Counted from the stretch's first letter, positions 19,769 to 53,817 are shown. The stretch is 53,817 bases of DNA from Candidatus Iainarchaeum sp. (GCA_026396995.1 JAPLVS010000079.1:1-53817); one strand, 5' to 3'. Notes: a model not told the origin generated them from the letters alone. Made by a program: numbers and translations.

Positions 19769-20269
19769 ATGCCTGAAATGAGGGAGCTTGGCGGGGACAG
19801 GATGAACCCGGTCCAGCGGGAAAGGCAGCACACTGTCAAGGCGTCGGTGCTGCTCATGCAGTTGCGCGAGGACGTCAAGGCAATGAACAGCGCTATTTCC
19901 ATCCTTTCGCAGAAAATGAGGCATCTGACCAGAAACGAAAAAATCCTCGGCCGCAATCTAATTGTCCTGAACAAGAAAATAAAGGAAATGGCAGAGCAGG
20001 GCGAAACAAGGGATGTGCCTGAAGCCGTCCTTAAAAAGTTCGAGGAAATCCAGAAGAAAGTGGACCAGATGGACAAGAAATTCGAGGAACTCAACATCGC
20101 GATCGCGAACACGAACAGGAAATTTGTGAGCGCCGAAGAGCTCAAGGAACTGCGCTATGTTGTCGATTCAATCAATCCCTTGAACCTTGCAACCCTGGAC
20201 CAGGTGAAGGAAATAGTCAAGAATGCGGTGGAAAAGCACCAAAAAGACCAGAAAATGGACCTGGGCTGA
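19769..20269 (+). CDS. coiled-coil protein (hypothetical)
   Basis: 166 aa, ATG start, heptad-rich K/E sequence. It is divergent from polB. The overlapping minus-strand ORF looks like the antisense shadow of a coiled coil. Confidence 0.55.
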   Translation: MPEMRELGGDRMNPVQRERQHTVKASVLLMQLREDVKAMNSAISILSQKMRHLTRNEKILGRNLIVLNKKIKEMAEQGETRDVPEAVLKKFEEIQKKVDQMDKKFEELNIAIANTNRKFVSAEELKELRYVVDSINPLNLATLDQVKEIVKNAVEKHQKDQKMDLG

Positions 20270-20335
20270 ACCTGTTTTTTGCAGCCAGATAAGCAAAAAC
20301 CAGCAGATGGACTTGGGCTGAAGATTTTTGATCGT

Positions 20336-21654: not shown

Positions 21655-23202
21655 TTACAGTTTTACCTGCGTCAGCGCCCTTGCTTCTTCGGGCTTTTTT
21701 TCGAGGCACTTGCTTAAGCCCGGCCTCAAGAGCACGCGGTAGTTTTTCCTGTTTTCCACTATCACGCCGACGTCGTTTTTTTCGATTATTGTGAGGGTGG
21801 CCTGCACTTTTTGCTTTATGTCTTTTGCCATGTTCGCCTTGTCCTTGAAGTCGAGCGCATATCCAACGCCGTATTCCCTCATCTGCGAGATGTCCGATGC
21901 AATCCTTTCGTTTGCCGCGTTTGCCTTGAAGAGCGGGACAACGTTTTCGCCGTCTGTCACAAAAAGCAGTGCCTTGAGCCTTTCGCTTTTGCCTGCCGAC
22001 CTGAAATTGTCGAGGACGCCTGAAACCACGGACTGCAATACAAGCAGATTTTTCCTCCAGTCGCTTTTTTCCATCACCAGTATGTTCGCCCTTCCTATGC
22101 CTTTCACCCAGCCCTCGGATATTTCCTTTATGGGATTCGAGCCTGTGAAGAGCTTCGGGTAAATTCCCTCAATCAGCATGAGTATCCTAGCAGCCTCCCT
22201 TTTCTTGAAAGGGGTCACGTGCTCGCCTTCAGGCAAAGCATTCACCCTGTCGATAAGCTGGAAGATGTCGGCGCTCCTGCCGAGCGCAAAGGCCTGTTCT
22301 ATTATTACGCCCTGGGTCTTGTCTAGCAGGCCGAATGCCGAAAGGAATGCTTTGGGGTCTACAAACGCAAGGTCTGCCGTCAATTCCTCGCCTGCCCTGA
22401 AAAACTTTATCGGGAAGCCTAACGGGTCCATGGTGGTGGTGTATTTTTTGAGTTCTTCTGTTTCGTCGTTGGGGAAATGAAGGCCGGCGAACACATTGTC
22501 CCAGTCCACAATTATTGTCGGGATATTCGAGAGCAGGGCGCTTTCGATGAGCACATGGAATGCATGCATGCGGTCTCCTTTGTTGCCGCCTGTCACTATG
22601 GTGCGGTCGAAGAAATCAAAAGGCTCTTTCACCATTGTGCCCTGCTTTGTGATTCCGAACATTATTTCCCCGTGCCCTAATTCTATCCTCAGTGTTTCCT
22701 CCTTTTTTCTCACCGCAGGCGAAATCAGCAATCCTATCAGCGGCAGGGTGAAAAAAGCGAGTTTTTCCTGGTCAGCGCAGTTTTTCAGTTCTATGAGGTC
22801 GAGGTCGTATGCTGTGCTCACTTCCTGCACGAGCGAGGAAAACGACTGTATTTTTGCCATCAGCGCGTCAGTTTCCTTTACAAACGAATCCTCGTCGTTT
22901 GCCGCATAAACAGAACCGGAATCCAAAAGCAAAAACTTGAATGTTTCCTTTGCGGTGTGCTTGGTAATCGAGAGCGCCCTGCGCGGCAGCGTTTCAATGA
23001 AGGTTTCGACGCCTCCCTTGCAATGGAAGACCTTATAGCATTCGAGCAGCGCGCCTTTGCGGAGGTTTCCCTCGGATTCGAAAACCATTGCCAGCACAAG
23101 GCTTTCAGGGTTGGCGTAAAGTTCTATTTCATGGCCCTGCATCGACCCGGTGAATAATGACGTCCAAGGCCCGTTGCTAAGCTTGAAGTCCAATTTGTGC
23201 AC
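21655..23202 (-). CDS. HerA/DUF87-like P-loop NTPase fold protein with apparently degenerate Walker A and B motifs
   Basis: The block order resembles HerA-type ATPases. 'RTIVTGGNKGDRMHAFHVLIESALLSNIPTIIVDWDNVF' sits where GxTGSGKS...hhhhD is expected. 'LKALLFVTDGENVVP' sits where hhhhEEAH is expected. 'MREYGVGYALDFKDKANMAKDI' sits where REGRKYGVGLxLxSQRPS is expected. This is pattern recognition only. Confidence 0.45.
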   Translation of the reverse strand: MHKLDFKLSNGPWTSLFTGSMQGHEIELYANPESLVLAMVFESEGNLRKGALLECYKVFHCKGGVETFIETLPRRALSITKHTAKETFKFLLLDSGSVYAANDEDSFVKETDALMAKIQSFSSLVQEVSTAYDLDLIELKNCADQEKLAFFTLPLIGLLISPAVRKKEETLRIELGHGEIMFGITKQGTMVKEPFDFFDRTIVTGGNKGDRMHAFHVLIESALLSNIPTIIVDWDNVFAGLHFPNDETEELKKYTTTMDPLGFPIKFFRAGEELTADLAFVDPKAFLSAFGLLDKTQGVIIEQAFALGRSADIFQLIDRVNALPEGEHVTPFKKREAARILMLIEGIYPKLFTGSNPIKEISEGWVKGIGRANILVMEKSDWRKNLLVLQSVVSGVLDNFRSAGKSERLKALLFVTDGENVVPLFKANAANERIASDISQMREYGVGYALDFKDKANMAKDIKQKVQATLTIIEKNDVGVIVENRKNYRVLLRPGLSKCLEKKPEEARALTQVKL

Positions 23203-23218
23203 CCGACCGTTTCCCTAT

Positions 23219-23306
23219 TATCAAAAGACCTTAATTCAGGGCTTTTTATGGTCTTTTGATAGCTATCAAAGGACAATCGTGTTTCATCCTTCCTGTCCTT
23301 TGATAT
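23219..23306 (+). promoter_or_regulatory. four-half-site palindromic element (two adjacent 11-12-bp-stem hairpins), copy 1
   Basis: TATCAAAAGACC-N19-GGTCTTTTGATA-GC-TATCAAAGGAC-N20-GTCCTTTGATA. It lies 17 nt upstream of the 21655-23202 start and 126 nt upstream of the 23432 ATG. Confidence 0.75.
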
Positions 23307-23431
23307 AAGTAAGACACTGCCGATTAATTTAAACCTTTCTTTCGCGGGGTTTCCTGTTTTGCCTTGCTGGAATAGCTTTTTAAATAACAATAGAGTAATG
23401 ATATAGTTTTCTAGGGAAACGTGAAAAGGGA

Positions 23432-24322
23432 ATGGTTGACGAAGAAGTTGTCATGGAGACAATCCGGAAAATGAAGGAATCAGGCCTGGAAGACTCCATT
23501 ATAATAAGCACTTTGCAGGACATCGGCCTGAACGAAACGCAGGCCCAGGATTTCATTGACAGGGCTTCCGGCCCGGCTCAGCCCAAAGCAGAACAGGCTG
23601 CCGCACCGGCGGCAAGAAAGCCTGCGGCAGCACAGCCGGCCCAAAGGCCGCAGGCAAGGCCACAACCGAGGCTGCAGCCTAAACCTGTGCCGCAGCCTGA
23701 AGAGACTTTCGAAGAACCGGCTGAAGCGCCTGCCGAAGAACCTGAAGAGATTGTTCCGGAAGAAGATTTGGGGGATTTCAGCGCCGACGAGGAAGCCGCA
23801 TTGAGCGCAGCATTCGAGGAAGAGGAGGAAAAACCCGCAAGGCCACAGGCAAGGGATGTTCCTGCAAGGGCTGTCGGGGGGGCGCTTTCCGAAGAAGACA
23901 GGACTGTCGAGGCAATCAGGAAAATCAGGGAAATTCCGCAAAGGCCTGCGCCTTATGGCACCCAAAGAACTGCAATGCAGGAAGGTGTTCCGCAATATCG
24001 GCAGCCTGTTAACCGCGCTTTGCCCTCGGAAGAAAATTTCGCAGACCAGTTCGAGGAAACCGCAATGAAGCAGGCTGCAACAGAAATCGCGCTTGAAGAG
24101 CAAGAGCAGACAATGAATGAAATGCAGCAGTCGATAAAGAAAATCGAAAGCAGGCCGATCGAATTGCCGCCAGGCGCAACCCAGGACACAAAGGCACTGA
24201 TGCTTGAACTGGAAAATTTAAGGCAGCAGCTCGAGGAAACAAGGGCAATGGCTTCAGCCACGCGCTCGCTCATGGAAAAAGTGCTGGAAGTCAACAGGAA
24301 AATACTGAGCAGGCTTCCGTGA
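23432..24322 (+). CDS. acidic Pro/Ala/Gln/Glu-rich low-complexity protein with small N-terminal helical domain and C-terminal coiled coil
   Basis: 296 aa, ATG preceded by a purine-rich tract. 'PAQPKAEQAAAPAARKPAAAQPAQRPQARPQPRLQPKPVPQPEE' is followed by acidic stretches. The C-terminus 'LMLELENLRQQLEETRAMASATRSLMEKVLE' is coiled-coil-like. Confidence 0.65.
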   Translation: MVDEEVVMETIRKMKESGLEDSIIISTLQDIGLNETQAQDFIDRASGPAQPKAEQAAAPAARKPAAAQPAQRPQARPQPRLQPKPVPQPEETFEEPAEAPAEEPEEIVPEEDLGDFSADEEAALSAAFEEEEEKPARPQARDVPARAVGGALSEEDRTVEAIRKIREIPQRPAPYGTQRTAMQEGVPQYRQPVNRALPSEENFADQFEETAMKQAATEIALEEQEQTMNEMQQSIKKIESRPIELPPGATQDTKALMLELENLRQQLEETRAMASATRSLMEKVLEVNRKILSRLP

Positions 24323-24347
24323 TTCTGCAGAATAACTTTTCTGTTTT

Positions 24348-24728
24348 TTATTTGAATATTCCCATGAATTTTGCGATGAATGTTTTTGCCGCGCTTCCCA
24401 CTCTTTCCCTTATCCCTGTTTTTTTGGTTTCCATTGCCCAGACTTTTTTCTGCTCCCAGAGGTCGTCACCGGCCTTTTTGCCCAAGACATTCAATCCCTC
24501 GCCTATGACCGCTTTAGAGGGATAGGTCGGGTTGGCTTTATCCATGTCGGAGTAAACCTTTGAGGCGGATTTCTTGATTTTTTCCCCGGAATACTTTCCG
24601 GCCCTGTAAATAAAGGTGCCGGCCAGGATGAAAGCGCCGCCCAAAAAAAACAGGAGCGAAAAGAAAAGTTCCCCGAGGGCAAAGCAAACGATTGCGAAAA
24701 AGAAAAGCCCCAATGCCATTGCAAGCAT
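24348..24728 (-). CDS. small membrane protein with amphipathic soluble tail (hypothetical)
   Basis: 126 aa, ATG start, two N-terminal TM helices and a Lys-rich C-terminal half. Confidence 0.6.
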   Translation of the reverse strand: MLAMALGLFFFAIVCFALGELFFSLLFFLGGAFILAGTFIYRAGKYSGEKIKKSASKVYSDMDKANPTYPSKAVIGEGLNVLGKKAGDDLWEQKKVWAMETKKTGIRERVGSAAKTFIAKFMGIFK

Positions 24729-24736
24729 TGCCTCAC

Positions 24737-25090
24737 CTACATTGGCCCGCCCATGCCGCCGCCACCCATTCCGCCCATCATGCCGCCCATGTCCCCGCCC
24801 ATTCCCCCGCCGAGGTCAGGCGCATAATATTCGGGCTGCTGGGGCTTCTGCCTGAATTCCATGATAAGCGATAAGATGACAAGCCCGAAAATCAGCAGAG
24901 GCCAGTAGGCTTTAGCGTAATCCTGCGTGAAATAAATGACGCCGAGAGCCAGAATCATGAGGAATGCCGTGGAAAGCGAGCGCGTGGAAAGAATGACAAG
25001 GATTACAGTGCCGAAAATCAGCCAGGCCTGGTCGAACTGCAGGAACATCATCATCAGAATTATTGAAATCATGAGGGTGAGCGTGTCCAT
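24737..25090 (-). CDS. small 4-TM membrane protein with Gly/Met-rich C-terminal tail
   Basis: ATG at 25090 ('MDTLTLMISIILMMMF'). The C-terminus is 'DLGGGMGGDMGGMMGGMGGGGMGGPM'. Confidence 0.65.
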   Translation of the reverse strand: MDTLTLMISIILMMMFLQFDQAWLIFGTVILVILSTRSLSTAFLMILALGVIYFTQDYAKAYWPLLIFGLVILSLIMEFRQKPQQPEYYAPDLGGGMGGDMGGMMGGMGGGGMGGPM

Positions 25091-25098
25091 GTTTACCA

Positions 25099-25362
25099 CT
25101 AATACTTGTAGAAGTCTTTCTGCGTTTCGCCCTTGCCGACCTTTTCAAACATGCCGGCAAAAAAGAAGGCAAGGAAAAAGAAAGCGAGAGGCGCCCATAT
25201 AAGTTCAGGGAACTGGAAAAATGTGAGGTAAACAATGATTACAGCGACAAGCACCGCGAGAACCACGTTCCCAAGCTGCCTTTTTGCCCAGGCATAAATC
25301 CAGATAAGATATACGAGCCCGAGCACTAACTGGATGTTCTGGAAAAAGTCACCGTAAACCAT
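25099..25362 (-). CDS. small 3-TM membrane protein (hypothetical)
   Basis: 87 aa, ATG start. Its stop codon abuts the next gene. Confidence 0.55.
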   Translation of the reverse strand: MVYGDFFQNIQLVLGLVYLIWIYAWAKRQLGNVVLAVLVAVIIVYLTFFQFPELIWAPLAFFFLAFFFAGMFEKVGKGETQKDFYKY

Positions 25363-25507
25363 TTTGCTCCCACAGAATAATGCATTAACAGCAATAAATT
25401 CTTTTCTATACGGCCCAAAGCCGTTTTATGGCAACCATTGCAGTTCCGGGCAATCAATTCTTTTCTATGCGGCTTAAGGCCGTTTAATGCCGTTATTGCC
25501 TTTTTGC

Positions 25508-25840
25508 CTACTTTCTCCTGTTCATCACAGTGTTTGTTCCCCACACTATGACTGCAAGGAAGTTGAATGCCATAAGGACATAGAAAAACACGTAAAGCGA
25601 GGCTGTCATATAGCCCCATTTTATGACAAGCAGGTAAACCAGGACACCGCTGATTACAAGCGTCAGGTTGCCTGCCCCGAGATAGCCGCGGACAGTGGTG
25701 AAAATAGTGAAGGTGAGCAATACCCGCATCAGAAGGTTCGCTATCGGGAAGAAAAACATTATCACAGGCGGCAAAAGGCACAACACCAGGAAACCGAGGA
25801 GAATCCACAAAATAAGCATTTTACCATGCCTCCGCTGCAT
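25508..25840 (-). CDS. small 4-TM membrane protein (hypothetical)
   Basis: 110 aa, with ATG at 25840 or 25819. Confidence 0.55.
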   Translation of the reverse strand: MQRRHGKMLILWILLGFLVLCLLPPVIMFFFPIANLLMRVLLTFTIFTTVRGYLGAGNLTLVISGVLVYLLVIKWGYMTASLYVFFYVLMAFNFLAVIVWGTNTVMNRRK

Positions 25841-25863
25841 TCAAGAAAACCATTTTTCCCATA

Positions 25864-26373
25864 TCATCGCCCCATGGGCCTCTGCGGCTGTGCAGGCATC
25901 GGCCTTGCACCGCCAGGCCCCCCGCCTGGAGCGCCACCTGGGCCTCCGCCCTGGTGCATCATTGCGCCAGGCTGCACCGGCATGCCCTGGCCTCCGCCCA
26001 TCTTGTGCATCTCATTTGCTGCCTGCAGTTCATGGGCTCTCCTGGCATATTCGGTGGCATCCATTTCCGGATGCTCCGACTTCCCTCCGCCCCCCATATT
26101 GCTGACAAAGAAGAAGTCAACCAAAACTCCTGAAATGCCGAGAGTGAGAAGTGTGTAAAGGATGAAAATTCCGCCGAAAAACTTCCAGTAATCGAACAAT
26201 ACAAACCAGCAGATGCCGCCTATAAGCGCATATGAAAGTGGGCTCTTGCCCAGGTGCGTGAACACAAAGGAAACCACTGTCAGGAGCGCGAAAATCTTCA
26301 ATGCCAGGTTGAGGTCGTTGAACATCTCGCCTATGAACAGCACTGCTGTCATTGCGCCGACAAATGACTGCAT
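25864..26373 (-). CDS. 4-TM membrane protein with Gly/Met/Pro-rich C-terminal tail
   Basis: 169 aa, ATG start. The tail is 'SNMGGGGKSEHPEM...HKMGGGQGMPVQPGAMMHQGGGPGGAPGGGPGGARPMPAQPQRPMGR'. Confidence 0.65.
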   Translation of the reverse strand: MQSFVGAMTAVLFIGEMFNDLNLALKIFALLTVVSFVFTHLGKSPLSYALIGGICWFVLFDYWKFFGGIFILYTLLTLGISGVLVDFFFVSNMGGGGKSEHPEMDATEYARRAHELQAANEMHKMGGGQGMPVQPGAMMHQGGGPGGAPGGGPGGARPMPAQPQRPMGR

Positions 26374-26492
26374 GAAATAAGAGTAATTAAAACTTATATA
26401 AATTGATTTGCTTTGGTGTTTTTCCTGCTTATGCTTTTTTCCAGGAAGCCTTTAACAAAATTGATTTGCTTTCCTGGCCTTGGGCGCAAAAC

Positions 26493-33602: not shown

Positions 33603-33680
33603 TCGCTCCTGCTGCGGCAGGCAAAGCCATGCCCTGCCATAATTTTCTCGCCCAAAGTTAATAATCCTTTCTGAATGCGG

Positions 33681-36600
33681 TTATTTCGATTTCGGCTGGA
33701 TGCACTCGCCTGTCGCATTGTCGATGTATTTCTGGAGCGATTTTTCTATTATCACTTTCGGGTTCCAGAAAAAGACAGTCTTTGCGGAATTGCCGGTGCC
33801 TGCAACGCAGATGTCCTCGGCCTTGACGAGTTCGAACACTTTTTCGACTGAATCGATGCTGCCGTCATATACTCCATTGAGCATCACAGTCGTGCCGCCT
33901 GCCGTGGTCGGCGCAATGAACGAGGCGCTGTCCTGGCTGTCTGTAAGCTCGATTGTGGATTCCGAGCCCTGCGGCGTGAACAGCACTGTCTTCAGGAAAA
34001 CGCTGCCCTGCCTTGTGACCTCGCACCATTCAAGGCCGTAATCGCTTTTCCTCTGTGTCGGCGAGCAGGACTGCTCGCTTGAAATGCCGCCGTGCATGTC
34101 CTTCCTGTTCATGTAAGTTTCAACTATTTCATTATCGGTGAAATCCTTGCAGCCCCTGACTATTCCAGTCCAAGTCGTGAGATACGAGCCTGTTATCTGG
34201 GGTTCGCCGTCAACTGTCATCGAATAATACGCCCAGGCCCTGTCGGATTTCCCGCCTGAAACCTTGAGCAGGAGCGGGGTCGCATTGCTCGGGCTCAATA
34301 TTATCGTCGAATCCGAGGCGGTGTGCTCGACATCAAGGACAACGCCGCGCTTGTCGTTGTTAAGGGTGCGGAAATTGTTGTTCTCTGCTGTGTACACCCA
34401 TCCGCCCGGGAGCGGCGAACTCGGCGCAATCGTGCTTGTCCTCAGCAATTGCTTTGAATCCTCGTTTATCTGTATTGTGGCAAGCGATTCCTGCCTGTAA
34501 TTTACGCCGTAACCCTGCCTGCCGTTGCCGCTGTCCGCTCCGACCAGGCCGTCGAATGGCATGTAATAGAACGGCGAGTCCGGGTCCGGATGGCTTAACA
34601 GGTTGAGTTTCACTGTAATGACCGCATTCGGCTCTGTTTCCTTGAACAAAGACCATGAAGAATCCTTGTATTCTATTTCAATCCTGACCTGATATTTTCC
34701 GCTCCTCAGATAGCCTGATTCAGGCCTCAGGAACGAAGAATCGAATTTCAGCAATTCAGGGTTCTTGAAATATTTCCACAGCCCTGTGTCGCCCTTATAA
34801 TAGCTCGGGGTGCCGAAGAAATCCTTTGACTGCGCGAACTCGTCGAAGTCGTTCCTGAAATCGTTTGTGTAACCGTCCATTATCAGGTTTGCCTTGAAGT
34901 TCGTGAGCTCGAGGGCCTTGCTGAGATTGGAATTGTTCGGGTTTGCAATCGAGTATTCGGCAAGCCTTGCGGTCGAATACGGTTCGCATTTTTCAGGCAC
35001 TCCTGAACCCACTACAACAGTTACATCGGCTGTGTTGTTGCCTGCATCTGTGTCCTTGCAACTGCCTGACTTGCAGGTTGAAACCTGCGGGCTTATCTGC
35101 ATGCTTGCAGTGTAAACGCCGTCAGTGAGGTTGCTGAAAGTGCAGTCTATTTCCTCCCTGCTTGTCAACTGCACTGCCTTTTCGCCGTTGGCGGCTTCAG
35201 GGCACGCTATCGGCGTTGCAGTGCCTTTTTTCGTGAGCGATATGACCGCCTTGACCGTCATTTCTGTCTGGTTGTTGCTTTCAATCGTGCCGATAACTTT
35301 TGCATTCTTTCCGTCCTTTACAACCCTTATCCTTGTAATGCCTACATCAAGGTCGTCGGTGCTCAGGTCCTGCGACTTGTCGCTTACCGCGCCCTCTATT
35401 GCCGGGCAGGCGAAAGTCTGGCCTCTCAGGAGCGTGTCAACCGCCTGGATTTTCTTTAACAGTTCTATCGAGAACTGGGTTGCATCGCAGTAAGTGCCGT
35501 CGCCTGCCTCATCGCAGGTATTGTCCTTGACATTGCTCCAGTCCCACCTGAACAAAACCTTGGGCAGGGCATTGGGCCCTGTCGTGCCTGTCATGTCGCC
35601 TATCATGCACGAAGTTTCCTGCACGACAGCCGGCTCGATTTCTTTCGCGCAATATGCGTTGAACTGCAGATGGAATTTCTGCGTGGCTCCATCCCCCCCG
35701 GTTACTGTGAGGAATTCGCCTGTCTTCAATGCCTCCGCGTCCTCTTTCTTTTTGACCTCGAACTGGGTGTTGTAATCGTATTGGTTGGTGTCGACTTTCA
35801 AAGTCCTGAAAACCGGCTTGTAGGGTTCGGCCTGCGTTAAGCCGTTGTTCTTGAAAACTATTTCTGTTTCCTCCCTTCCAAGCGGGTAATCCTTGTCGGC
35901 CTTTTTGGTTGTATCGCCTGTTTGCACAATGATCTGGCTTTCAGCCTGCTCTTCAAGGCCCATCGGAATGACAAGGTTCACTGACAAAATGTTCATGTCG
36001 GTTGCAGTGGTCACATAAGGCAGCGTCCCTTCCTGCTGCACGAAATTATAATTGTAGAGAGTGCCTGCAATCGCGCCGACTACCGCTCCCATCCACGGGT
36101 TATCGATGCCGATAAGCGAATTAATCGAACTGTTCAGGGTTCCAAGCAATGACCCGCCCAAATCCAGGAGGCTGCCGCCGGTTGAAGCCATTGCGACAGG
36201 CATGCCATTTTCCGGAACGCCCTGAGCAGAAGCGCTTCCAAGGCACTCGTGCTTTACATATGCCTCTTCCCCAATATCGTCAACATACATGTTTCCGGGC
36301 GCAGGGCAGCAGTAAATTGTTTCGCCGTTGTATGTGACTGTCTGCGGCAGAACCTCCACATTTTGCATGTGGCATGTTCCGTCAGATAAAGTGCATGTCG
36401 AGCAAGTTCCGTCGCTCGGGCATGCGGAGATAACCTCGTCACATTCTGCGCCCCCCTTGCAGAGCACTGCAGAGCATTTGTCCCGGTCTGTCAATGTTAC
36501 TGTGGTCGGTGTCCCGCTGGTGTTTGCAGTGCCTGATTCTGTGTATGGCGTAAAAATGGCCCTCCCCTCACTATCCTTAGGGAAGTGCCTGTCGCTGCCC

Positions 36601-39600: not shown

Positions 39601-42600
39601 TTGAACGCTGTTTTTTCAGGTTCTATCCCGAGCACCGAGGTGTCGACAGTTATTTCTTTTTTGAGGGCTTGGTAGTCAGGCTTTTCTGCAACAATGAACA
39701 GTTTTTCGCCTGGCACAAGGATTGGAATGGTTATGGCTGCAATGCCCAGCCCTGTTGTTGTGGTCTGTGAGAGCGTGTCCCCGAACTTGTTCTGGAGCTT
39801 GACTGTCGCGCCCGCAACCTCCAGGCCGTCGCGCAGCCTCTGCACTTTCACCTTTAATTCGTTTTCTATGCCGCTCGGCAGCGTTGGCGGCGAATCCTGG
39901 TATTCGCCATCCTTTTCGAACAATATCTTGAATTGCTCGGCTGCAAGAATGTCTATTGTGATGGATTTTTCGAAGATGTTTTCGTGCCTGTTAGGGTCGT
40001 GCAGCCTGAACATTATGGCTGAGGAAATGCTTGCCTGCGGGGTGAAGAGCAGCGTTCCTTTCACTTCCCTGCTCGGCGGCAGGTTGCCTATCGATACTTC
40101 CGGCGTTTCACTGCCCTGCGCGTTCCCGTCGACTGAAAGTTCGCCTGTGAAATTGTATGTGCCGATGGTTATCGATTCCTCGGGATTCCAGGCTTTCGCT
40201 GTCACGCCCTGGAAAGTATCGGTTTCGCTTTTGCTGTTGTTCAGGACGCTGAATGAAAGCCTGTAGGGCTTGCCGACCTTGGCCGAATATGTTTCGTCGA
40301 CAGACTGTGCCAGGTCTTCCTCTATGTCGAGTATTTTCACCGAATAGCACCATTTGTCTGAGCAAAGCGTTTCGGTGCCGACCTGGAATGTTTTCTTGTA
40401 TGCTTCGGCGTAAAGGCCTGCGGTGCTTTCGGATGTTCCCAGCGTGATGTCTGCCGGGTCCCTCAGGACAGTGGTGCCGTCTTCGGCCCATGCGCGCCAG
40501 AAAATCGGCAGTTCTGTATCGGCCTTTGCTGTGTCTTTCACTTTTATTATGAGTTCTACGTAGATTTTGCCTTTGGTGTAATTCGACCATTCGAAGTTCA
40601 TCCATTTCGAGCCGTCCGCGCTCAGGAACTGCGAGTCCGCGTTTATTCCCTGGCTTTTGTCGAAAGAAGTGCCTTTCAGGATGTCAGGGTTCCCGGGAAC
40701 CATTTCTTCCTTTATGTAAATGTGGTCGAGTTCCATTTTGCTTTCATAGCCTGTCCTTACATGCAGGCCAACCCTGTCGTATTCTGAATTGTCAGGCATT
40801 GAAAGCCTGAATTTTGCAACGTATTCCTCGCCTGCCCCGGCGATTGAAACGATTTTGCCGTTCTTGTAAAGGCCGAGGAATTCGCCTTCTATTCCCCCGC
40901 TTATGCGCATTATTTCAAGCACGAAATTGAGGTCTTTTGTGGCTGCCGGTTCGACTGTCACAGGCTGCGATACAAGCGTTGCATAGCCGTCTTTTTGCAC
41001 CACAAAAAATACGGCTTCGCCTGCAATGACTTCAAAGGAAATCGTGCCGTCCTCGTTTTCCACGATTTTCGGGCCCTCTATTTTTTTGTCGTTCTGCGCT
41101 TTTTTGACAGTGACAAAGGAATACTGCAGCGGCCTGCCATCCTCATCCACCACCCTCACATTGATTGTGCCGTTCTGGACAGTCATTGTGACAGTCAGGT
41201 CTTCCTGGGCGCCTTCCCTGACGCTGTATTCGGTTGTTTCGCTCCAGCCCTTGCTGTAGCCCCTGAAAGCGAACGCCTTGTAGGTGCCGTTCCCTATGCC
41301 TGTGAATTTGGCATAGCCGTTTATGTCTGTCACCCTTTTTGTGCCGACATAGTAGCCGTCATTGTCGAACAGCATTACAACTGCGCCCTGGATGCTATTG
41401 CCTGCCTCGTCCTGCACTTTCACATTCAGGGAACCGCCGCACTGGCTTGCAAGGCCTGTGTATTTTGTGAGGCTTATCTGCTTGACGTCATCGCCTTTTG
41501 TGAGGTCGGACAGTTTTTTCAGGCAATAGCCTTCCTTGTCTATCACAAGGTTGTATTTTGTGTCATCCCTCAGGTTGAAGGAATATTCGCCTGTGGTTGC
41601 CGTAAGGGCGCTTTCGATTTCGGCCTGGTCTTTTTTGAGTGTGAGCCTTGCGTCCTTTACTGCCGCCTTCGAGGTTGCGTCTATCACTTTCACTTTTATC
41701 TGGCCGACAATCCTGTCCTTCAAGTATAATGAGGCTGTTTTCTTGTCCCCTGCGTTCACGCTGATTGCGGCTGACTCCTCGCCTGTAAGGGTTGATGTTG
41801 CGGTGCTTTTGACCTTGTATTTTCCAGGCTCAAGTTCCTTGAACTGCACCTGCCCGCTTGAAGTGCTGTCGTTGTCTATTGGAATTGCGTCTTGTGCCAA
41901 GTCTTCGACCCTGTAAAGGCTCACTGTTATTTCTTCAGCCACGCGCTTGGCCCTTTCCTTTTCATAGAAGAGGTTGACTGTGAAGTCGCCTGTCACAGGC
42001 TCAGGGGGAATTGTCACATCGGCCTGCAGTTCTATTATGCCGTCAGACCCGACTGTGGCGTTCTTGCGCTTGTAGCCCGACATTACGACGTCGGCGGTCA
42101 GAATGCAGTTTTTTGGGATTACCGCGGTGTAAAATCCGTTTTCTATTGTCACAGAGCCTGGCGATTCAAGGTCCGGGTCTGTGCATTTGAGGACCGCATT
42201 TGCTGCCTTGCCGCTCAAAAGCCCCTTTGATTCGGAATCAACAAGCCTTATTGCCACTTCCTTGGTGGTGATTATTTCCTCAAGGGTGAAAGAAAGCGAT
42301 TTCTTTTCGGTTTTGATTTCTATATCCGAATAATATCCTTCCGAAGGCGTCTTGAACTTGTAGCCTTCCTTTTCAACGCTTACCTTTGTGATTTTGTCGC
42401 CCATGAAAACATTGAAGTCGGCGATTGTGCCGTCTTCACTTGTCTTGTAATCGTATGTCTTGCCCCCATACGTGATTAGGACTGCCGCGCCCTCAAGCGG
42501 GTTTTTGTCTGTGTCCTTTACAGTGAGCGATATGGTGCCAGGCTTCGGGGCGATGACCGGAAGGAAGAATATGACTGTAAGGTATACGAGGAGCGCGACT

Positions 42601-42656
42601 ATTATGAAAAGCAAAAGCGCAAAGCTCGGTATGACCTTGTCTATTGCATCGGTCAA
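33681..42656 (-). CDS. giant membrane-anchored surface protein, paralog 2 (2991 aa) with cysteine-rich insert
   Basis: Uninterrupted 9.0-kb ORF with a TTG start (no in-frame ATG upstream; a stop lies 18 codons upstream). N-terminal TM helix 'FALLLFIIVALLVYLTVIFFL'. Repeated units include 'GSLNVKVQDEAGNSIQGAVVMLFDNDGYYVGTKRVTDINGYAKFTGIGNGTYKAFAF'. YCDATQFSIEL is at 35460-35492 and FYYMPFDG at 34548-34574. A ~750-aa Cys-rich block spans 36105-38345. Confidence 0.9.
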   Translation of the reverse strand: MTDAIDKVIPSFALLLFIIVALLVYLTVIFFLPVIAPKPGTISLTVKDTDKNPLEGAAVLITYGGKTYDYKTSEDGTIADFNVFMGDKITKVSVEKEGYKFKTPSEGYYSDIEIKTEKKSLSFTLEEIITTKEVAIRLVDSESKGLLSGKAANAVLKCTDPDLESPGSVTIENGFYTAVIPKNCILTADVVMSGYKRKNATVGSDGIIELQADVTIPPEPVTGDFTVNLFYEKERAKRVAEEITVSLYRVEDLAQDAIPIDNDSTSSGQVQFKELEPGKYKVKSTATSTLTGEESAAISVNAGDKKTASLYLKDRIVGQIKVKVIDATSKAAVKDARLTLKKDQAEIESALTATTGEYSFNLRDDTKYNLVIDKEGYCLKKLSDLTKGDDVKQISLTKYTGLASQCGGSLNVKVQDEAGNSIQGAVVMLFDNDGYYVGTKRVTDINGYAKFTGIGNGTYKAFAFRGYSKGWSETTEYSVREGAQEDLTVTMTVQNGTINVRVVDEDGRPLQYSFVTVKKAQNDKKIEGPKIVENEDGTISFEVIAGEAVFFVVQKDGYATLVSQPVTVEPAATKDLNFVLEIMRISGGIEGEFLGLYKNGKIVSIAGAGEEYVAKFRLSMPDNSEYDRVGLHVRTGYESKMELDHIYIKEEMVPGNPDILKGTSFDKSQGINADSQFLSADGSKWMNFEWSNYTKGKIYVELIIKVKDTAKADTELPIFWRAWAEDGTTVLRDPADITLGTSESTAGLYAEAYKKTFQVGTETLCSDKWCYSVKILDIEEDLAQSVDETYSAKVGKPYRLSFSVLNNSKSETDTFQGVTAKAWNPEESITIGTYNFTGELSVDGNAQGSETPEVSIGNLPPSREVKGTLLFTPQASISSAIMFRLHDPNRHENIFEKSITIDILAAEQFKILFEKDGEYQDSPPTLPSGIENELKVKVQRLRDGLEVAGATVKLQNKFGDTLSQTTTTGLGIAAITIPILVPGEKLFIVAEKPDYQALKKEITVDTSVLGIEPEKTAFNLDVIEQLPDTKTITLTNLTQMELTISDIQFTGEFDGLVDEEKANEWLYSEYVGKKIASKETLEISSKVELSDLGKLTETGQSLNGKITFTVSSMGHSWVFSNDTTVTIALGGEVDDPNCFTLDKASWQATIQSQEAATDIKVSNSCTVKGQPVELKNISAKIEWKSNKLGDVWVKIQDIAVELRGNYPKLLRGSLDKESDITGMLSFLPDAGVVGTAEATITVTAEHATSGGTQVLSDSMGVSIKIVNMAGCLKFSKDLVKIMEGEEGSFTIEATENCGGTVGLKLDTDLTIPQKEFSMKQGETKEITVLSEENYPGAYPIYVFMKGAGLKEYSFAKLVSVIIDTDGCIRLSKYEYDIQDCSDNLYDGFDTGKIINVCHSKTINAEVKFNEKNLWDAFLGSWPWALGGFIYGGINAMAEGKTFWGTDKPETTCSNAGLEYCSGKMMCKNDNIKQVKNVICCASECVDGEKGASVRGDLCTKKGYTYCGTGKCVGEQKPVSGIYCCQGKCQAEFETEAFMKICKDNSGAYCNEGEECSEDFEWFEGVKCCTGKCETPENTPQMMACAEKSAKFCNEKNGWACPDKKELIYEEKGIKCCSADCIKSEDATYSEPEKETEAEDTTCMTKGAKYDFCQENEECLGGETEEVEGIECCQHICTNPEDSDYYEKTCSAFDSSYHFCDGVTSECTAKIQKIGDDDLPCCTAECESMFNEEDGTAKPKAGGGTGQATEADSICKNTALDGDPNYDHCEAGEACFQKSPTVIGGTDCCLHKCVDNAAKVDEYQAACKSEGWTYCTYIDEDCDPENQVLLQAADNKGLPCCKAACTPRDMEKQGSGNYYFNCKSGEPAAGAKPRCSGTPGEIVIDTYQGGCLENTGCSAEAGCLTTTTSYKKCEPNQTCEEGANGAECKDTPGTGTGTGGGTTTGGTSTSTGSLTEKNKVCTDGGHGNYCPTGKGYGCWGRCLQCQGVDPQAYIIGSINTTCCQMDTSGGGNVQMSCYLMGSDRHFPKDSEGRAIFTPYTESGTANTSGTPTTVTLTDRDKCSAVLCKGGAECDEVISACPSDGTCSTCTLSDGTCHMQNVEVLPQTVTYNGETIYCCPAPGNMYVDDIGEEAYVKHECLGSASAQGVPENGMPVAMASTGGSLLDLGGSLLGTLNSSINSLIGIDNPWMGAVVGAIAGTLYNYNFVQQEGTLPYVTTATDMNILSVNLVIPMGLEEQAESQIIVQTGDTTKKADKDYPLGREETEIVFKNNGLTQAEPYKPVFRTLKVDTNQYDYNTQFEVKKKEDAEALKTGEFLTVTGGDGATQKFHLQFNAYCAKEIEPAVVQETSCMIGDMTGTTGPNALPKVLFRWDWSNVKDNTCDEAGDGTYCDATQFSIELLKKIQAVDTLLRGQTFACPAIEGAVSDKSQDLSTDDLDVGITRIRVVKDGKNAKVIGTIESNNQTEMTVKAVISLTKKGTATPIACPEAANGEKAVQLTSREEIDCTFSNLTDGVYTASMQISPQVSTCKSGSCKDTDAGNNTADVTVVVGSGVPEKCEPYSTARLAEYSIANPNNSNLSKALELTNFKANLIMDGYTNDFRNDFDEFAQSKDFFGTPSYYKGDTGLWKYFKNPELLKFDSSFLRPESGYLRSGKYQVRIEIEYKDSSWSLFKETEPNAVITVKLNLLSHPDPDSPFYYMPFDGLVGADSGNGRQGYGVNYRQESLATIQINEDSKQLLRTSTIAPSSPLPGGWVYTAENNNFRTLNNDKRGVVLDVEHTASDSTIILSPSNATPLLLKVSGGKSDRAWAYYSMTVDGEPQITGSYLTTWTGIVRGCKDFTDNEIVETYMNRKDMHGGISSEQSCSPTQRKSDYGLEWCEVTRQGSVFLKTVLFTPQGSESTIELTDSQDSASFIAPTTAGGTTVMLNGVYDGSIDSVEKVFELVKAEDICVAGTGNSAKTVFFWNPKVIIEKSLQKYIDNATGECIQPKSK

Positions 42657-42780
42657 CTTGTTGACAGGCAGTTTTGTGCTGATTTTGTCTATTATTTCAT
42701 AATACCTGTCTTAAAGATGATAATACAGGTCTTTCAGAGAGCTTCCAAGTCCCATACATTCACCAAACCTTTATTCACTA

Positions 42781-42869
42781 ATATCAAAGGACAAAAATAA
42801 TCGCATAAATTTGTCCTTTGATAGCTATCAAAAGACATTTGGAAAATACCATTTAATGTCTTTTGATAT
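42781..42869 (-). promoter_or_regulatory. four-half-site palindromic element, copy 2 (reverse complement arrangement of copy 1)
   Basis: Plus strand: TATCAAAGGAC-N20-GTCCTTTGATA-GC-TATCAAAAGAC-N21-GTCTTTTGATA. Read on the minus strand it has the same half-site order as copy 1. It ends 125 nt upstream of the paralog-2 start codon and lies 86 nt downstream of the paralog-3 stop. Confidence 0.75.
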
Positions 42870-42954
42870 AATATTAATTAATCGCTTTATGTTTTTATTC
42901 CTTTTTCTTTTTTCCAATGCGGTTTTTTCCCTGTGTTGCTTCTTTAATCCTGCC

Positions 42955-50616: not shown

Positions 50617-50884
50617 CGCACCACTCCATTAACTTTATTCATTAACCCAAATTAATTTATCCTATTTTCATTATTTATTCCTTTTGTTTGCCTTCCAGGC
50701 GGTGTTTTCCGCCTTTTGGCATTTCAGGCTTTTTTTTGTTTTTTTATTCCTTTTGCCTGCCTTGAAAAAGGCAGTTGGCGGGAACGCTTTTATTATTGTT
50801 CTCTTATTATAAGGAATTCCTATTTATAATATTTTCCCATGCCTTCCAGGCAGGCAGGCGCCTGCTTTCAGTGCCGGATTCCTG

Positions 50885-52552
50885 TCAGGCCAGCTTTGAA
50901 GGATAACAGCCGTCCACTGTGTTAGGCACATAGCACACCCAGCCTTTCTCGTTGCATGCTTTTTCATCGAATTCCGGAAAGCTGAATGCGCAGTCTGAAC
51001 CAGTGTCGCCAAGGCTTATTTTTGCATTGAAGGGAGTGTAATTGTAGTCGGCTGTGCTTATTTTTATCCAGACATCCCTGTCCTTCATGACCTTGTAGTT
51101 CATGTCTTTTTCCATATAAGTCACCATCAGTTTCACTACAGTGACCTGCGTGCATTTGGCCTTGTCAGGCGCTGAAGCGGCAAAGCACGATGCAGGCCCG
51201 AAATCATTTATTTTTATTTCACCGCCTTCGCGGAACATTCCTGTGCGCTGGTTTTCCTGCAGTTCATACTGGTAAGGGCAGAGCGCTCCGGGCCCATCAG
51301 GATTGTTCGGCTCCTCTTCTGAAAATGTGCCTCTGAGGCCTGAAGCGTCGATATCCGCATTGCCTGCCTCTATCCCTTTTGATTCATGGGATTTCGCTTC
51401 AATGCCCCCTTTTTCGTCCACTGTGACATAGCACGGCTTGCCCTGGAATGTTTCTGTTGCTATCGCGAAATCGTTTTTGTATTGCGGCCCCTCGTATTTG
51501 CCGAGCAGTTCGGTTGAAAGCTCGCAGAGCCTTTGCTTCAGGAGCGCTTTTATTTCGTCTTCGGTGCCTTTGTCGTTTCCTGCCTCGTATGAGAAATTTG
51601 TGCCCCTGAAAGTGCCGTCCACTGAAAGATAGTCGCTGCTTGAAGTGATAAAGCCAGGGCAGGACTGCGAGTCAATGTATGTCCTGTCAGGCGGGAAATA
51701 CGGGTTCTGCCTAGGATAGCAATAACCGTAATCGCAGAAGCCCAGCGCCATAGAATCTATTTCGTTTTGTATCCTCGGCGAATAATAGCCGAAATCGCTC
51801 GCGGTGTTTATCCCTGAGCCGAGCTCTGAATGCATGAAGCTCCTTGCGAGCGTGAGCGCCTTGAAAATCCTTGTGGGAATGTATACCTTCAGGTCGTTTT
51901 TAGGAATTATGGGATCGCTGCCTGTGGAGTTGCCGCGCGTGTCTTTCACTGTTATCAACGGCATCTGCTCGTACAGGCTTTGGTCAAGCTTGGAAAATTT
52001 AAGGTTGAGATAAAAGCTGCCGTTAGGGCAGGTTTCAGGCGTGCCTTTGCAGTCTATTATCTGGAAAAAATCATTGTCCTCATAGCTTTTGGCCAGCACT
52101 TCCTTGAGTATTGCCTTGAATTTTACCTGGTCGAATTGGACATCAAGTTCATAGCCGGCATAACCTTCTGGTTTGGATTGGGCAATCATGCTCGGAAGGT
52201 TGCGCGCAAGATAGTCTGCGAAAACCTCTGCGTTCTTGAACTTGGCGTCTGCGAACTCGTCGACCACGCTCTGCCAGTCAGCCCACTTGTGGTAATCTGC
52301 GATTTCGAAAACATTTCCGGGCTCGCTTAGCCATAATTCCATCTGCTCCCTTGTCGCATAATTGAAGGTCTGGAACGCATCCGCCCTTATGAGCCTTGAC
52401 ATCGATTCAAGCCTGCTCTGGCTCAAAACTTTTGCAATGATTGTTTTTGCGTTGCTTTCGCTTTGCACCATGCTGGATACAAGGATGGATGTCAGCACAA
52501 TCAGTATGAGCGCAAGCAGTGCAGTGAACAGGTTGAAAGCGCGCTCATTCAA
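50885..52552 (-). CDS. secreted or surface protein with type-IV-pilin-like (class III signal) N-terminus (hypothetical)
   Basis: TTG start with GGTG 7 nt upstream. The N-terminus is 'MNERA/FNLFTALLALILIVLTSILVSS': a short charged segment ending in R-A, then an uninterrupted hydrophobic helix. The remainder is a soluble domain with many Cys. Confidence 0.6.
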   Translation of the reverse strand: MNERAFNLFTALLALILIVLTSILVSSMVQSESNAKTIIAKVLSQSRLESMSRLIRADAFQTFNYATREQMELWLSEPGNVFEIADYHKWADWQSVVDEFADAKFKNAEVFADYLARNLPSMIAQSKPEGYAGYELDVQFDQVKFKAILKEVLAKSYEDNDFFQIIDCKGTPETCPNGSFYLNLKFSKLDQSLYEQMPLITVKDTRGNSTGSDPIIPKNDLKVYIPTRIFKALTLARSFMHSELGSGINTASDFGYYSPRIQNEIDSMALGFCDYGYCYPRQNPYFPPDRTYIDSQSCPGFITSSSDYLSVDGTFRGTNFSYEAGNDKGTEDEIKALLKQRLCELSTELLGKYEGPQYKNDFAIATETFQGKPCYVTVDEKGGIEAKSHESKGIEAGNADIDASGLRGTFSEEEPNNPDGPGALCPYQYELQENQRTGMFREGGEIKINDFGPASCFAASAPDKAKCTQVTVVKLMVTYMEKDMNYKVMKDRDVWIKISTADYNYTPFNAKISLGDTGSDCAFSFPEFDEKACNEKGWVCYVPNTVDGCYPSKLA

Positions 52553-52618
52553 AATTCACACCGCCTTGCCTTCATTTACAAACCGCTTCCTGTTCCTTCA
52601 ATTGCGTTTTTTTTCCTG

Positions 52619-53817
52619 TTAAGTGCCGCCTTTTCTGCCTGCATCCTGGCCGCTTTTATCCGGCGCCTCAGGCGGCTTTGTCCCTGAATCGCTTTTCCCG
52701 GTTTCGGCTGTTGTGCCGGTGTCATCGCAGAAATTGAATTTCTGCCAGACCTTGTATGTTGCAACGACTTCCGCAGCATACTGGTTTAGGGCGTCCTTAT
52801 CGTCCACGAACTTTTCTTTCGCCAGCTGTTTCACTGTTTCCCCGGCGCTTTCGGCAGGCATCGCTTCCCCTGGTTCGGCGCTTCCCGAAAGCATGGCTTT
52901 CCTGAGTTTGCTTGCAGCGCATTCTATGGCCTGCTCCTGTTCTTCAGGGGTGAACTTTTGGCTGTACCAGTCTTTCTGGATGCACTGGTCCCCGTCGCAG
53001 CATCCGTCAATGTTTTCCGGGCTTGTGAAAAGAACCGACATCAGGAGCGCTTCATCCAACTTGTTTGCCTGGTCGCTGATGCATTCGGCTGCAATTTTTG
53101 GATTGTGGTCGTAGTATGCGAGCACCTGTGCCTGTGTGACGCCCTTGACTTCAGGGTCAGGCATCAGGCAGCCTATAAGCTCGTCTATGCCCTGCTCCAA
53201 TTGCTTCTTGCAGTCCTCTGCCTTCCAGTATTCTGCGGTTTTCTTTACAATTGCTTCGCCCATTTTTGCAATGTCTTCCTCCTTGACTTCTTCGATTGAA
53301 ACATGCGTTATGCCCTTGTCATCCATTGTAATTGTTATATGGTACGGCTTGAATTTCCTGAACACTTCCACCCCTTCATAATTCGACAAAGGCCCTGCGA
53401 AATTAAAGCTCTGGCCTGCCTGGGCCTCTGCCCTGAGGTCGCCGAGCTGCATGTTCAATACCCACTGCTGTGCCTGCAGTCCCGCAAGGTTTGCGAGGAC
53501 GCCGCAGCCGACGCTTTTGAGAATTCTCGACCAAAAACCAGGCTTCGCCAGGCTCTTCAGGAAATTCTTTATTCTTTCGCCAGGCTTCACTCCTCCCTTT
53601 AGGCCGGTCGCGCCTGGGCTGGTTTCTGCAAAGGCCTGTTTTGTGATGTCTTCGACATTGCCGCCGACTGCAGTGGCAAGGTCATCCGCATACTGGCTTG
53701 ATTTCAGGGAGCCTACTGCTTCAGACACCGCATTCTTTGCGCTTGTTTTTGACACCGCAGTCCCGTTTCTAAGGTTCGAGCGGATCTTGTTGCTGAGGAA
53801 TTCTTTTATTTTGTCCG
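52619..53817 (-). CDS. hypothetical protein, 5'-truncated by the window edge
   Basis: The track start (53755) is a GTG, but hand translation shows the frame stays open to position 53817 ('...DKIKEFLSNKIRSNLRNGTAVSKTSAKNAV...'). Contains 'DGCCDGDQC'. No recognised domain. Confidence 0.6.
   Translation of the reverse strand, partial: DKIKEFLSNKIRSNLRNGTAVSKTSAKNAVSEAVGSLKSSQYADDLATAVGGNVEDITKQAFAETSPGATGLKGGVKPGERIKNFLKSLAKPGFWSRILKSVGCGVLANLAGLQAQQWVLNMQLGDLRAEAQAGQSFNFAGPLSNYEGVEVFRKFKPYHITITMDDKGITHVSIEEVKEEDIAKMGEAIVKKTAEYWKAEDCKKQLEQGIDELIGCLMPDPEVKGVTQAQVLAYYDHNPKIAAECISDQANKLDEALLMSVLFTSPENIDGCCDGDQCIQKDWYSQKFTPEEQEQAIECAASKLRKAMLSGSAEPGEAMPAESAGETVKQLAKEKFVDDKDALNQYAAEVVATYKVWQKFNFCDDTGTTAETGKSDSGTKPPEAPDKSGQDAGRKGGT

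Follow-up and report, generated by a model that had tools for sequence, protein, structure and literature searches.

Do the giant open reading frames (ORFs), the small membrane proteins, and the HerA-like nucleoside triphosphatase (NTPase) gene that crowd the right part of a stretch of Candidatus Iainarchaeum sp. DNA belong to one machine? The window considered here is that whole stretch of 53,817 nucleotides (nt) (GCA_026396995.1 JAPLVS010000079.1:1-53817). It is chromosomal DNA of a DPANN archaeon of Iainarchaeota (Diapherotrites) type, and its closest proteins come from records labeled Candidatus Diapherotrites or Candidatus Iainarchaeum. The left half carries the housekeeping genes for a family B DNA polymerase (PolB), an M24 peptidase, and histidyl-tRNA synthetase (HisRS), together with five tRNAs, which were the sole matches in an Rfam scan of the whole window. 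A sequence-only reading had proposed that the genes of the right part form a single co-regulated unit that builds or deploys very large surface structures, tied together by a palindromic element. All of the ORFs listed in that reading were found at the sizes given. With a probability of roughly 60%, however, the right part is better described as two neighboring, separable conserved units together with two genome-specific insertions, a palindrome and a gene for a 400-amino-acid (aa) membrane protein. Unit A, on the minus strand from ~24.3 kb to beyond the window end, would be a lineage-specific cell-envelope or surface gene array of four giant paralogs, a 555-aa pilin-like protein, and five small membrane proteins (s1 to s5). 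Unit B, at 19.7 to 24.3 kb, would encode a cytoplasmic triad of a catalytically dead HerA-fold protein and two coiled-coil proteins, cc296 and p166 (Table 1).

Gene order around the HerA-like gene

The neighborhood was compared in about a dozen Iainarchaeota-type loci whose NTPase ranges from 91% down to 38% identity. Wherever a locus is long enough, the order is the same: the giant(s), s1 to s5, the coiled-coil (cc) gene on the opposite strand, the NTPase gene, a gene for a coiled-coil protein of ~150 aa (p150, the family to which p166 belongs) again on the opposite strand, PolB, M24, and a membrane protein of ~316 aa. Outside this block, gene order differs between loci. The sequence-only reading had staked its single unit on conservation of the neighborhood in related genomes, and the giants and s1 to s5 are indeed conserved together, as is the pilin-like protein in one relative (L005). 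That part of the proposal holds; the HerA-like gene falls in a separate unit. Because the conserved block continues into replication and housekeeping genes, adjacency alone is no proof of shared function, and from the gene orders seen, the proximity of the NTPase gene to the surface genes in Iainarchaeota cannot be told apart from simple collinearity.

Distant members of the HerA-like family lie on contigs labeled Micrarchaeota. In two of these loci (L009 and L010), the NTPase gene lies between aCPSF1 and TFE-alpha. In L011 it is followed by a p150 homolog, PolB, and M24, and in L030 it sits between a short cc homolog and a p150 homolog, with PolB and M24 after them. The homologs of p166 in L011 and L030 were recovered with E values of 4e-22 and 7e-29, respectively, and the homolog of cc296 that adjoins the NTPase gene in L030 with an E value of 8e-12. 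Scans with hidden Markov models (HMMs) and BLAST found no giants in the DNA in view of L009 to L011; s1 to s5 were likewise absent from these three loci (HMM and BLAST) and from the called genes of L030 (HMM). The DNA in view extended 10 kb to each side of the NTPase gene in L009 and L010 and was shortened by contig ends in L011 and L030. These neighborhoods indicate that the pseudo-HerA protein has its stable partners in the two coiled-coil proteins and PolB/M24 and not in the surface cluster. Since the triad is kept by PolB/M24 in Micrarchaeota-type genomes without giants in view, Unit B is probably not an export accessory of Unit A.

Two side observations concern the PolB side of the block. 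The PolB gene of L011 (L011:8381-12103) encodes 1,240 aa versus ~800 aa elsewhere, and its BLAST match is split in two, consistent with an intein or other insertion. A membrane protein of ~320 to 390 aa follows M24, either directly or one gene later, in the window (15261-16274), in L030 (L030:7117-8172), and in L011 (L011:14009-15184). These proteins, from Iainarchaeota-type and Micrarchaeota-type loci alike, have a similar architecture, with transmembrane (TM) helices at the N-terminus, one TM helix at the C-terminus, and a soluble part between; BLAST similarity between them was not detected. The protein may be part of the conserved block.

Two insertions specific to this genome

The palindromic element has the structure TATCAAAAGAC-N20-GTCTTTTGATA-GC-TATCAAAGGACA-N18-TGTCCTTTGATA, contains the stretch GTCTTTTGATAGCTATCAAAGGAC, and is bounded by terminal inverted repeats (TATCAAARGAC...GTCYTTTGATA). 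Each copy folds into two perfect adjacent hairpins. As the sequence-only reading had noticed, there are exactly two copies in the window, oriented alike with respect to the downstream gene. Together they supply eight exact TATCAAARGAC half-sites; when one mismatch was allowed, nine matches were found in the window against 1.6 expected, a count reached in 0 of 100 shuffles. The spacing to the downstream gene, said to be identical, is so only if the 2,991-aa giant starts at TTG 42656 (126 versus 125 nt); the ancestral ATG at 42755 lies just 26 nt away.

Both copies turned out to be extra DNA. At the site of copy B, the flanks are nearly identical to those of the orthologous spacer in L005, and the window holds exactly 90 additional bases with ATATTA on both sides. 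The NTPase-cc spacer that contains copy A has ~92 extra bases relative to L001. The target-site duplication is thus the 6-nt ATATTA at copy B and is ambiguous (TA or TAT) at copy A. The half-site was absent from 28 related loci, and the core had no IMG/VR match and corresponded to no Rfam family. Given the empty sites in relatives and the absence from the 28 loci and IMG/VR, the palindrome is, on sequence comparison, a genome-specific insertion resembling a miniature inverted-repeat transposable element (MITE), placed in AT-rich, TATA-like sites or promoter regions. It had been taken as the physical link between the two halves of the module; with no counterpart at the orthologous sites in L005 and L001, it loses that role. 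A conserved operator was also considered for the element and was rejected, as the element is absent in relatives. Between the copies, the four 11-nt half-sites show 100% identity and both ~20-nt loops are fully diverged, which suggests selection on the stems, either as protein-binding sites or as hairpins. We know of no partner transposase. The case shows that a mobile double-hairpin element can mimic a shared regulatory site.

The second insertion holds the gene for the 400-aa membrane protein, a 1.35-kb segment (20270-21654) between the convergent NTPase and p166 genes. In all of the relatives examined, the NTPase-p150 gap is 0 to 150 nt and this gene is missing, so that the protein drops out of the module to which it had been assigned. 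It matched no family in Pfam, NCBIfam, or PADLOC.

Two copies of a mobile double hairpin and an inserted membrane protein gene within one region raise the question of whether the whole region came in as a mobile element that integrated, or as cargo of a virus or plasmid, the more so because ATPases of the FtsK-HerA superfamily are known from viruses and conjugative elements (Iyer et al. 2004, as cited in PMC4858521). We regard this as highly improbable. The block keeps the same chromosomal position, beside PolB, M24, HisRS, and TrkH, in relatives spanning 38 to 91% identity, and neither integrase nor capsid genes were found. Phage and plasmid collections and PADLOC yielded no match to the NTPase. 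A mobile-element or viral origin is thus largely refuted by the conserved chromosomal position and by the empty phage, plasmid, and IMG/VR searches.

Table 1 Features of the right part of the window
Feature	Position	Strand	Remarks
p166 (p150 family), basic coiled-coil protein	19769..20269	+	Conserved pseudo-HerA partner beside PolB
400-aa polytopic membrane protein	20336..21538	-	~11 hydrophobic segments; genome-specific insertion
HerA-fold pseudo-ATPase, 515 aa	21655..23202	-	Probable true start TTG 23193
Palindrome copy A	23219..23305	+	Divergent promoter region of HerA-like and cc296 genes; fold z -6.4
cc296, 296 aa, isoelectric point (pI) 4.5	23432..24322	+	Conserved N-terminal domain of ~45 residues, acidic Pro-rich linker, C-terminal coiled coil
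s5, 126-aa protein	24348..24728	-	N-terminal TM hairpin and soluble basic C-terminal domain
s4, 120-aa membrane protein	24737..25099	-	Conserved stretch PQQPEYYAPDLGG, then Gly/Met-rich tail
s3, 87-aa membrane protein	25099..25362	-	Weak relation to s1
s2, 110-aa membrane protein	25508..25840	-	Three predicted TM segments
s1, 169-aa polytopic membrane protein	25864..26373	-	Gly/Met-rich, basic-ended tail; conserved TM core
Giant 3, 2,369 aa	26493..33602	-	N-terminal anchor, Ig-like repeats, internal hydrophobic hairpin, 810-aa C-terminal region
Giant 2, 2,991 aa from TTG 42656	33681..42755	-	Ancestral ATG 42755; in-frame TAA 42713-42711; 102 Cys
Palindrome copy B	42782..42868	-	Upstream of 2,991-aa gene; fold z -9.3
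Giant 1, 2,553 aa	42955..50616	-	N-terminal cytoplasmic motif, TM anchor, Ig-like repeats
555-aa Cys-rich protein, pilin-like N-terminus MNERA/FNLFTALLALILIVL	50885..52552	-	Single N-terminal hydrophobic helix
Fourth giant, C-terminal 398 codons	52619..53817	-	Gene runs past window end; 58% identity to C-terminus of L005:1753-9924 (2,723 aa)

A HerA-fold family without ATPase motifs

An AlphaFold2 model of the HerA-like protein, built from a 20-sequence alignment, had a mean predicted local distance difference test (pLDDT) score of 83. Its top Foldseek matches in the PDB were all HerA (4d2i, E value of 5.8e-12, probability of 1.0), in agreement with the earlier description of the protein as HerA-like; 9x1l, 7wrx, and Sir2-HerA and DUF4297-HerA complexes were also matched, with E values ranging from 6e-12 to 1e-8. 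A sequence profile of the protein recovered no HerA from the PDB. The Walker motifs are degenerate, as had been claimed: the P-loop reads G205-G-N-K-G-D-R211-M, compared with the consensus GxxxxGK[ST], and Walker B reads TIIVD233-W, compared with hhhhDE.

A profile search covering 1.84 billion representatives placed 348 clusters (at 50% identity) in the family. Of these, 172 scored below 1e-30, and nearly all were 480 to 520 aa long. Among the 143 aligned full-length members, none had GK[ST]. The Walker B Asp was only partly conserved across the same 143 proteins, and the position of the catalytic Glu was occupied by mixed residues and not conserved. From these alignments, the family is an old, family-wide pseudo-ATPase and not a decayed copy. 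The GTG start listed for the window ORF is probably three codons too far upstream, since orthologs begin with MDFKL or MEFKL and translation from TTG 23193 gives MDFKL. The annotated start of one relative (P0002; GCA_038736825.1) is also probably too long, by ~19 codons.

The known HerA partners NurA, Sir2, and DUF4297 were found in none of the neighborhoods examined, and the NTPase had no PADLOC match. A HerA-based defense system was rejected because there is neither an effector partner nor a PADLOC match. Transfer of DNA by a Ced or type IV secretion-like system, which would call for an active VirB4/CedB-type ATPase, a polytopic CedA-like protein, and small VirB2-like membrane proteins, was likewise rejected, as ATPase motifs are absent, neither the small membrane proteins nor the 400-aa protein match any family, and conservation of the latter is lacking. 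For cc296 and p166, profiles gave nothing but coiled-coil noise against the PDB. In the literature searched, there was no account of a dead HerA family in DPANN archaea. Having lost every ATPase motif, this family of 348 clusters travels with two coiled-coil partners beside PolB, both in Iainarchaeota and in one or more Micrarchaeota-type loci. The triad is a separate lead of similar interest to the surface cluster.

The giant proteins of Unit A

The three complete giants are paralogs, as the sequence-only reading had concluded. They are 23 to 29% identical over ~1,300 N-terminal residues and over C-terminal stretches (BLASTP E values of 1e-54 to 1e-76). An ORF seen to enter from outside the window is present and is now identified as the C-terminus of a fourth giant. 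The L005 ortholog of the latter is a distant paralog of the other three (24 to 27% identity over the repeat region) and has an N-terminal anchor followed by CarboxypepD_reg repeats. In the array, the gene for the 555-aa protein sits between the fourth giant and giant 1, and s1 to s5 come after the last giant.

Hydrophobicity prediction gave one strong N-terminal helix per giant, located at residues 24 to 42 in giant 1. It is preceded by a leader of 20 to 45 residues that is predicted to be cytoplasmic and that carries a motif of approximately L-[KE]-[DE]-[LFW]-[YW]...[DE]-x-[YW]-x-x-L-x-[DE]-K-[IG]-x-[IF]-P, kept across paralogs and orthologs. This short motif thus ends in K-G/I-x-P; in giant 1 the sequence ...WLEEKGIP leads directly into the TM segment. 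In Pfam, the giants matched only CarboxypepD_reg, Big_1, SpaA, SdrD_B, and macroglobulin-type Ig-like domains, all within the N-terminal ~1,000 residues. CarboxypepD_reg scored 48 to 113 bits against the Pfam cut-off of 32.3, and SpaA, SdrD_B, and MG4 domains were also found. For giant 1, the matches were CarboxypepD_reg (5.8e-23), SpaA, and bMG3; for giant 2, CarboxypepD_reg had an E value of 5.7e-33. The proteins are acidic (pI 4.6 to 5.0) and contain 28 to 102 cysteines. They combine a secretion or anchor signal with tandem Ig-like or transthyretin-like domains, two features of large Ig-like-repeat surface proteins. It is on the N-terminal anchor, the Ig-like and CarboxypepD_reg repeats, the acidic pI, and the cysteines that the surface-protein reading of the giants is based.

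Beyond the Ig-like repeats, about half of each giant has no recognizable domain and no PDB sequence match. The last 810 residues of giant 3 (1560 to 2369) were modeled with AlphaFold2 at moderate confidence (pLDDT of 69.8). The alignment behind this model was shallow, as the homolog search for the giant C-terminus returned 7 proteins only. These homologs were on contigs labeled Diapherotrites or unclassified archaea, save one labeled Thaumarchaeota. Foldseek searches of the PDB and BFVD with the model returned only matches to single Ig-like sandwiches, with TM scores of ~0.1, and no fold could be assigned.

Giant 3 is distinguished by an internal hydrophobic hairpin at approximately residues 1505 to 1557. 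A hairpin is present at the same position (~1480 to 1550) in all orthologs (L002, L006, L007, L008, and L013). Its position is kept; its sequence is not conserved. Midway along the protein, this hairpin could anchor it in the membrane a second time or could act as a membrane-active loop. In giant 2, codon 15 is TAA in the window versus GAG in L005, which interrupts the N-terminal motif; the remaining 9-kb ORF is intact. Either a very recent nonsense mutation, a restart downstream, or an assembly or population variant would account for this difference.

The 555-aa protein and the small membrane proteins

The 555-aa protein begins with MNERA followed by FNLFTALLAL. The L005 ortholog matches it at each of the first 34 residues (100% identity), compared with 67% identity overall. 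It had no match in Pfam, NCBIfam, or PDB sequences.

The membrane cores of s1 to s5 are strongly conserved across orthologs, and s1 was found in 17 metagenome loci. s1 and s2 are paralogous (hhalign probability of 96.8%, E value of 3e-10), and s3, which gave 67% against s1, may be related. Gly/Met-rich tails had been reported on two of the small proteins; they are real (s1 and s4), though variable among orthologs. Nothing in Pfam, NCBIfam, or PADLOC was matched above threshold by s1 to s5, and no type IV pilus (T4P) component was matched.

Two observations concern the surroundings of these genes. The spacer between s2 and s3 is 145 nt long in the window versus 44 to 98 nt in relatives. It includes (25391-25489) two copies of a 40-nt unit, 85% identical and 59 nt apart, in each of which an AT-rich, TATA-like stretch comes after a short GC hairpin. 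Since the spacer is both longer and repeated, a possible internal promoter region may be partly duplicated. In another relative, L019, a 5-kb restriction-modification/toxin island (L019:240-5071) lies directly upstream of s1, where the last giant sits elsewhere. As read from translations, the island encodes two DNA methyltransferase-like proteins, one restriction-enzyme-like protein, and a RelE/ParE-like toxin. s1 to s5 are therefore separable from the giants by insertions.

Pilin-like and archaeosortase-family features

In L005, the array can be followed beyond the position at which the window ends. Immediately upstream of the fourth giant lies a gene for a 219-aa protein (L005:1042-1701) that scored 42.9 bits against TIGR04178 (exosortase/archaeosortase; NCBIfam cut-off of 23). 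The archaeosortase-family gene was seen in this one relative, and the corresponding position in Candidatus Iainarchaeum sp. is beyond the window's right end. Further upstream are two small paralogous ORFs (L005:445-1026 and L005:9-377). One of them has a classical pilin-like start, KG/QAFSTFKLLIAAIV (KG/QAFSTFKLL...), and the locus boundary truncates the other at its 5' end. Candidate class III signals, with the slash marking the putative cleavage site, are thus present in the 555-aa protein (MNERA/FNLFTALLAL), in the small L005 ORF (KG/QAFSTFKLL), and, before the hydrophobic helix, in the giants (KG/IP). None of these matched a Pfam pilin.

These features allow for a T4P-like or archaeosortase-dependent fiber, in which class III signals on the giants and the 555-aa protein would be cleaved after K-G or R-A and the proteins would assemble by way of their N-terminal helices to give a pilus-like stalk bearing huge ectodomains, with the archaeosortase-family enzyme processing one component. 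The pilin-like N-termini of the 555-aa protein (perfectly conserved) and of the small L005 ORFs fit such a fiber, as do the KG/IP and IG/FP junctions that directly precede the hydrophobic helix of the giants. At 20 to 45 residues, however, the leader ahead of the putative cleavage site is unusually long, and known class III signals do not typically have a Pro at +2 (FlaFind rules). Archaeal T4P loci with large adhesin-like proteins have been described (PMC4858521), but the pilus assembly ATPase (PilB/FlaI) and the TadC/PilC platform are absent from the window, from the 21.7 kb of L005, and from the other fetched loci, and no prepilin peptidase was found in the window or fetched loci. The archaeosortase-family gene does adjoin the fourth giant in L005; that gene is outside the window and was seen in a single relative, and the tripartite signal of sorting motif, TM helix, and basic cluster is absent at the C-termini of the giants and the 555-aa protein, none of which has a C-terminal hydrophobic segment. 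We consider a fiber of this kind improbable.

Are the two units one machine?

If Units A and B formed one integrated machine, the dead HerA-like ring and its coiled coils would dock under s1 to s5 and help to insert, hold, or deploy the giants, and all of the genes would be co-regulated. All parts lie next to one another, without exception, in the Iainarchaeota-type loci seen, but the same collinear block also holds PolB and M24, which are functionally unrelated. The cc296 gene is convergent with s5 and divergent from the NTPase gene, an arrangement that fits such a machine; the palindrome, which was the sole physical or regulatory link proposed, is a genome-specific insertion. The conserved cytoplasmic motif at the N-termini of the giants could be a docking signal, but without ATPase motifs the pseudo-HerA protein cannot power export. 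A small membrane protein does stand at the s5 position in L030, yet the NTPase family as seen in Micrarchaeota-type loci is without giants or s1 to s5 in view. We judge a single integrated machine to be rather unlikely.

Some observations nevertheless weigh against the reading of two separable units with a surface role for Unit A. Within Iainarchaeota, the two units were never seen apart, and a lineage-specific functional coupling between them may exist. The protein at the s5 position in L030 is a 97-aa membrane protein located just before the contig end, so Unit B might have a small-membrane-protein partner in Micrarchaeota. Given the L019 island, s1 to s5 could be part of Unit B instead of going with the giants. 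On the side of Unit A, the lack of C-terminal sorting signals and of pilus assembly genes described above counts in the same direction. The giants fit large membrane-anchored surface proteins, with their location read from sequence features, and at a pLDDT of 69.8 the C-terminal model may have missed a fold match.

With two separable units as the preferred reading, a mechanism can be proposed for Unit A. After export, the giants would stay attached to the membrane through their N-terminal helix, acting as a signal anchor or as a class III prepilin-type signal, and would form an outer coat or adhesive layer. s1 to s5 may assemble into a heteromeric platform in the membrane, where the anchors of the giants are received or held. 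In L005, the array is headed by the archaeosortase-family gene and the small pilin-like genes. We infer this mechanism, with helix-anchored giants and s1 to s5 as their platform, from the sequences. For the cluster as a whole, we lean toward large Ig-like-repeat surface proteins with dedicated accessory membrane proteins. A bolder version would have the N-terminally anchored giants, with their family-specific cytoplasmic leader, handed to a five-subunit s1-s5 complex with pilin-like and archaeosortase-family helpers and, in this lineage, a nucleotide-independent HerA-fold ring with its coiled-coil partners serving as a docking scaffold. This version is speculative and quite doubtful; if true, archaea would have an envelope-assembly machine of a new kind, and the HerA fold a structural use not seen before.

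To our knowledge, experiments have established little about how the cell envelope is built in Iainarchaeota and in DPANN archaea related to them. The surface cluster spans ~32 kb, a few per cent of a typical DPANN genome of ~1 Mb, and is an obvious candidate for what Iainarchaeota cells expose to the outside or to partner cells. It offers concrete targets in four giants with a common leader motif and five small, strongly conserved membrane proteins.

Comparison with known systems

The sequence-only reading could name no characterized secretion or adhesion system that fits these genes, and searches of Pfam, NCBIfam, PADLOC, PDB sequences, and Foldseek have not changed this; in Pfam, NCBIfam, and PADLOC, all of the small and medium-sized proteins stayed below threshold. 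In the literature searched, there was also no account of a gene set combining the giants with s1 to s5.

The closest parallel to the giants is with giant Ig-like adhesins. Bacterial adhesins of the Bap, SiiE, and Embp types are giant surface proteins built of Ig-like repeats. Likeness lies in the multi-kilobase tandem paralogous genes, in the acidic character and long runs of Ig-like or transthyretin-like domains (CarboxypepD_reg, Big_1, and SpaA), and in a special extended N-terminal region ahead of a hydrophobic segment. In contrast with such adhesins, the anchor is an N-terminal helix and not an LPXTG motif, a type I secretion system, or a C-terminal anchor. Further differences are that about half of each giant is without a domain, that the 2,369-aa type has an internal hairpin, and that five small membrane proteins always follow. 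Comparable cases are Apilactobacillus kunkeei, with its Giant1-5 array (PMC12863079), and nanohaloarchaea, with their large surface proteins (PMC10266531).

Among archaeal T4P loci are some with several minor pilins and with large proteins of adhesin-like or S-layer-like type (Makarova, Koonin and Albers 2016, PMC4858521). Unit A resembles these loci in the pilin-like N-termini on several cluster proteins and in its very large Cys-rich proteins. It differs in that neither the window nor the fetched loci contain the defining assembly ATPase or TadC/PilC platform and in that s1 to s5 match no T4P component. With exosortase/archaeosortase systems, the cluster shares a family gene above the NCBIfam cut-off upstream of the fourth giant in L005; unlike the substrates of those systems, the giants and the 555-aa protein have no sortase-substrate C-terminus.

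The palindrome resembles a MITE in being ~90 nt long and non-coding, in its terminal inverted repeats, and in its AT-rich sites, with empty sites in relatives and a duplication at one copy. It differs in its diverged loops with identical half-sites and in its number, two copies having been seen within 54 kb of this genome.

The predicted structure of the Unit B protein shares with the hexameric HerA DNA translocase (4d2i, 9x1l, and 7wrx) an N-terminal beta-barrel and a RecA-like core with a helical insertion. At the sequence level there is no similarity to HerA. The Walker A Lys is replaced by Arg, the Ser/Thr is lost, and the catalytic Glu is lost in all 143 aligned members. In place of NurA, Sir2, or DUF4297, the partners of HerA, Sir2-HerA, and DUF4297-HerA, the protein is accompanied by two coiled-coil proteins.

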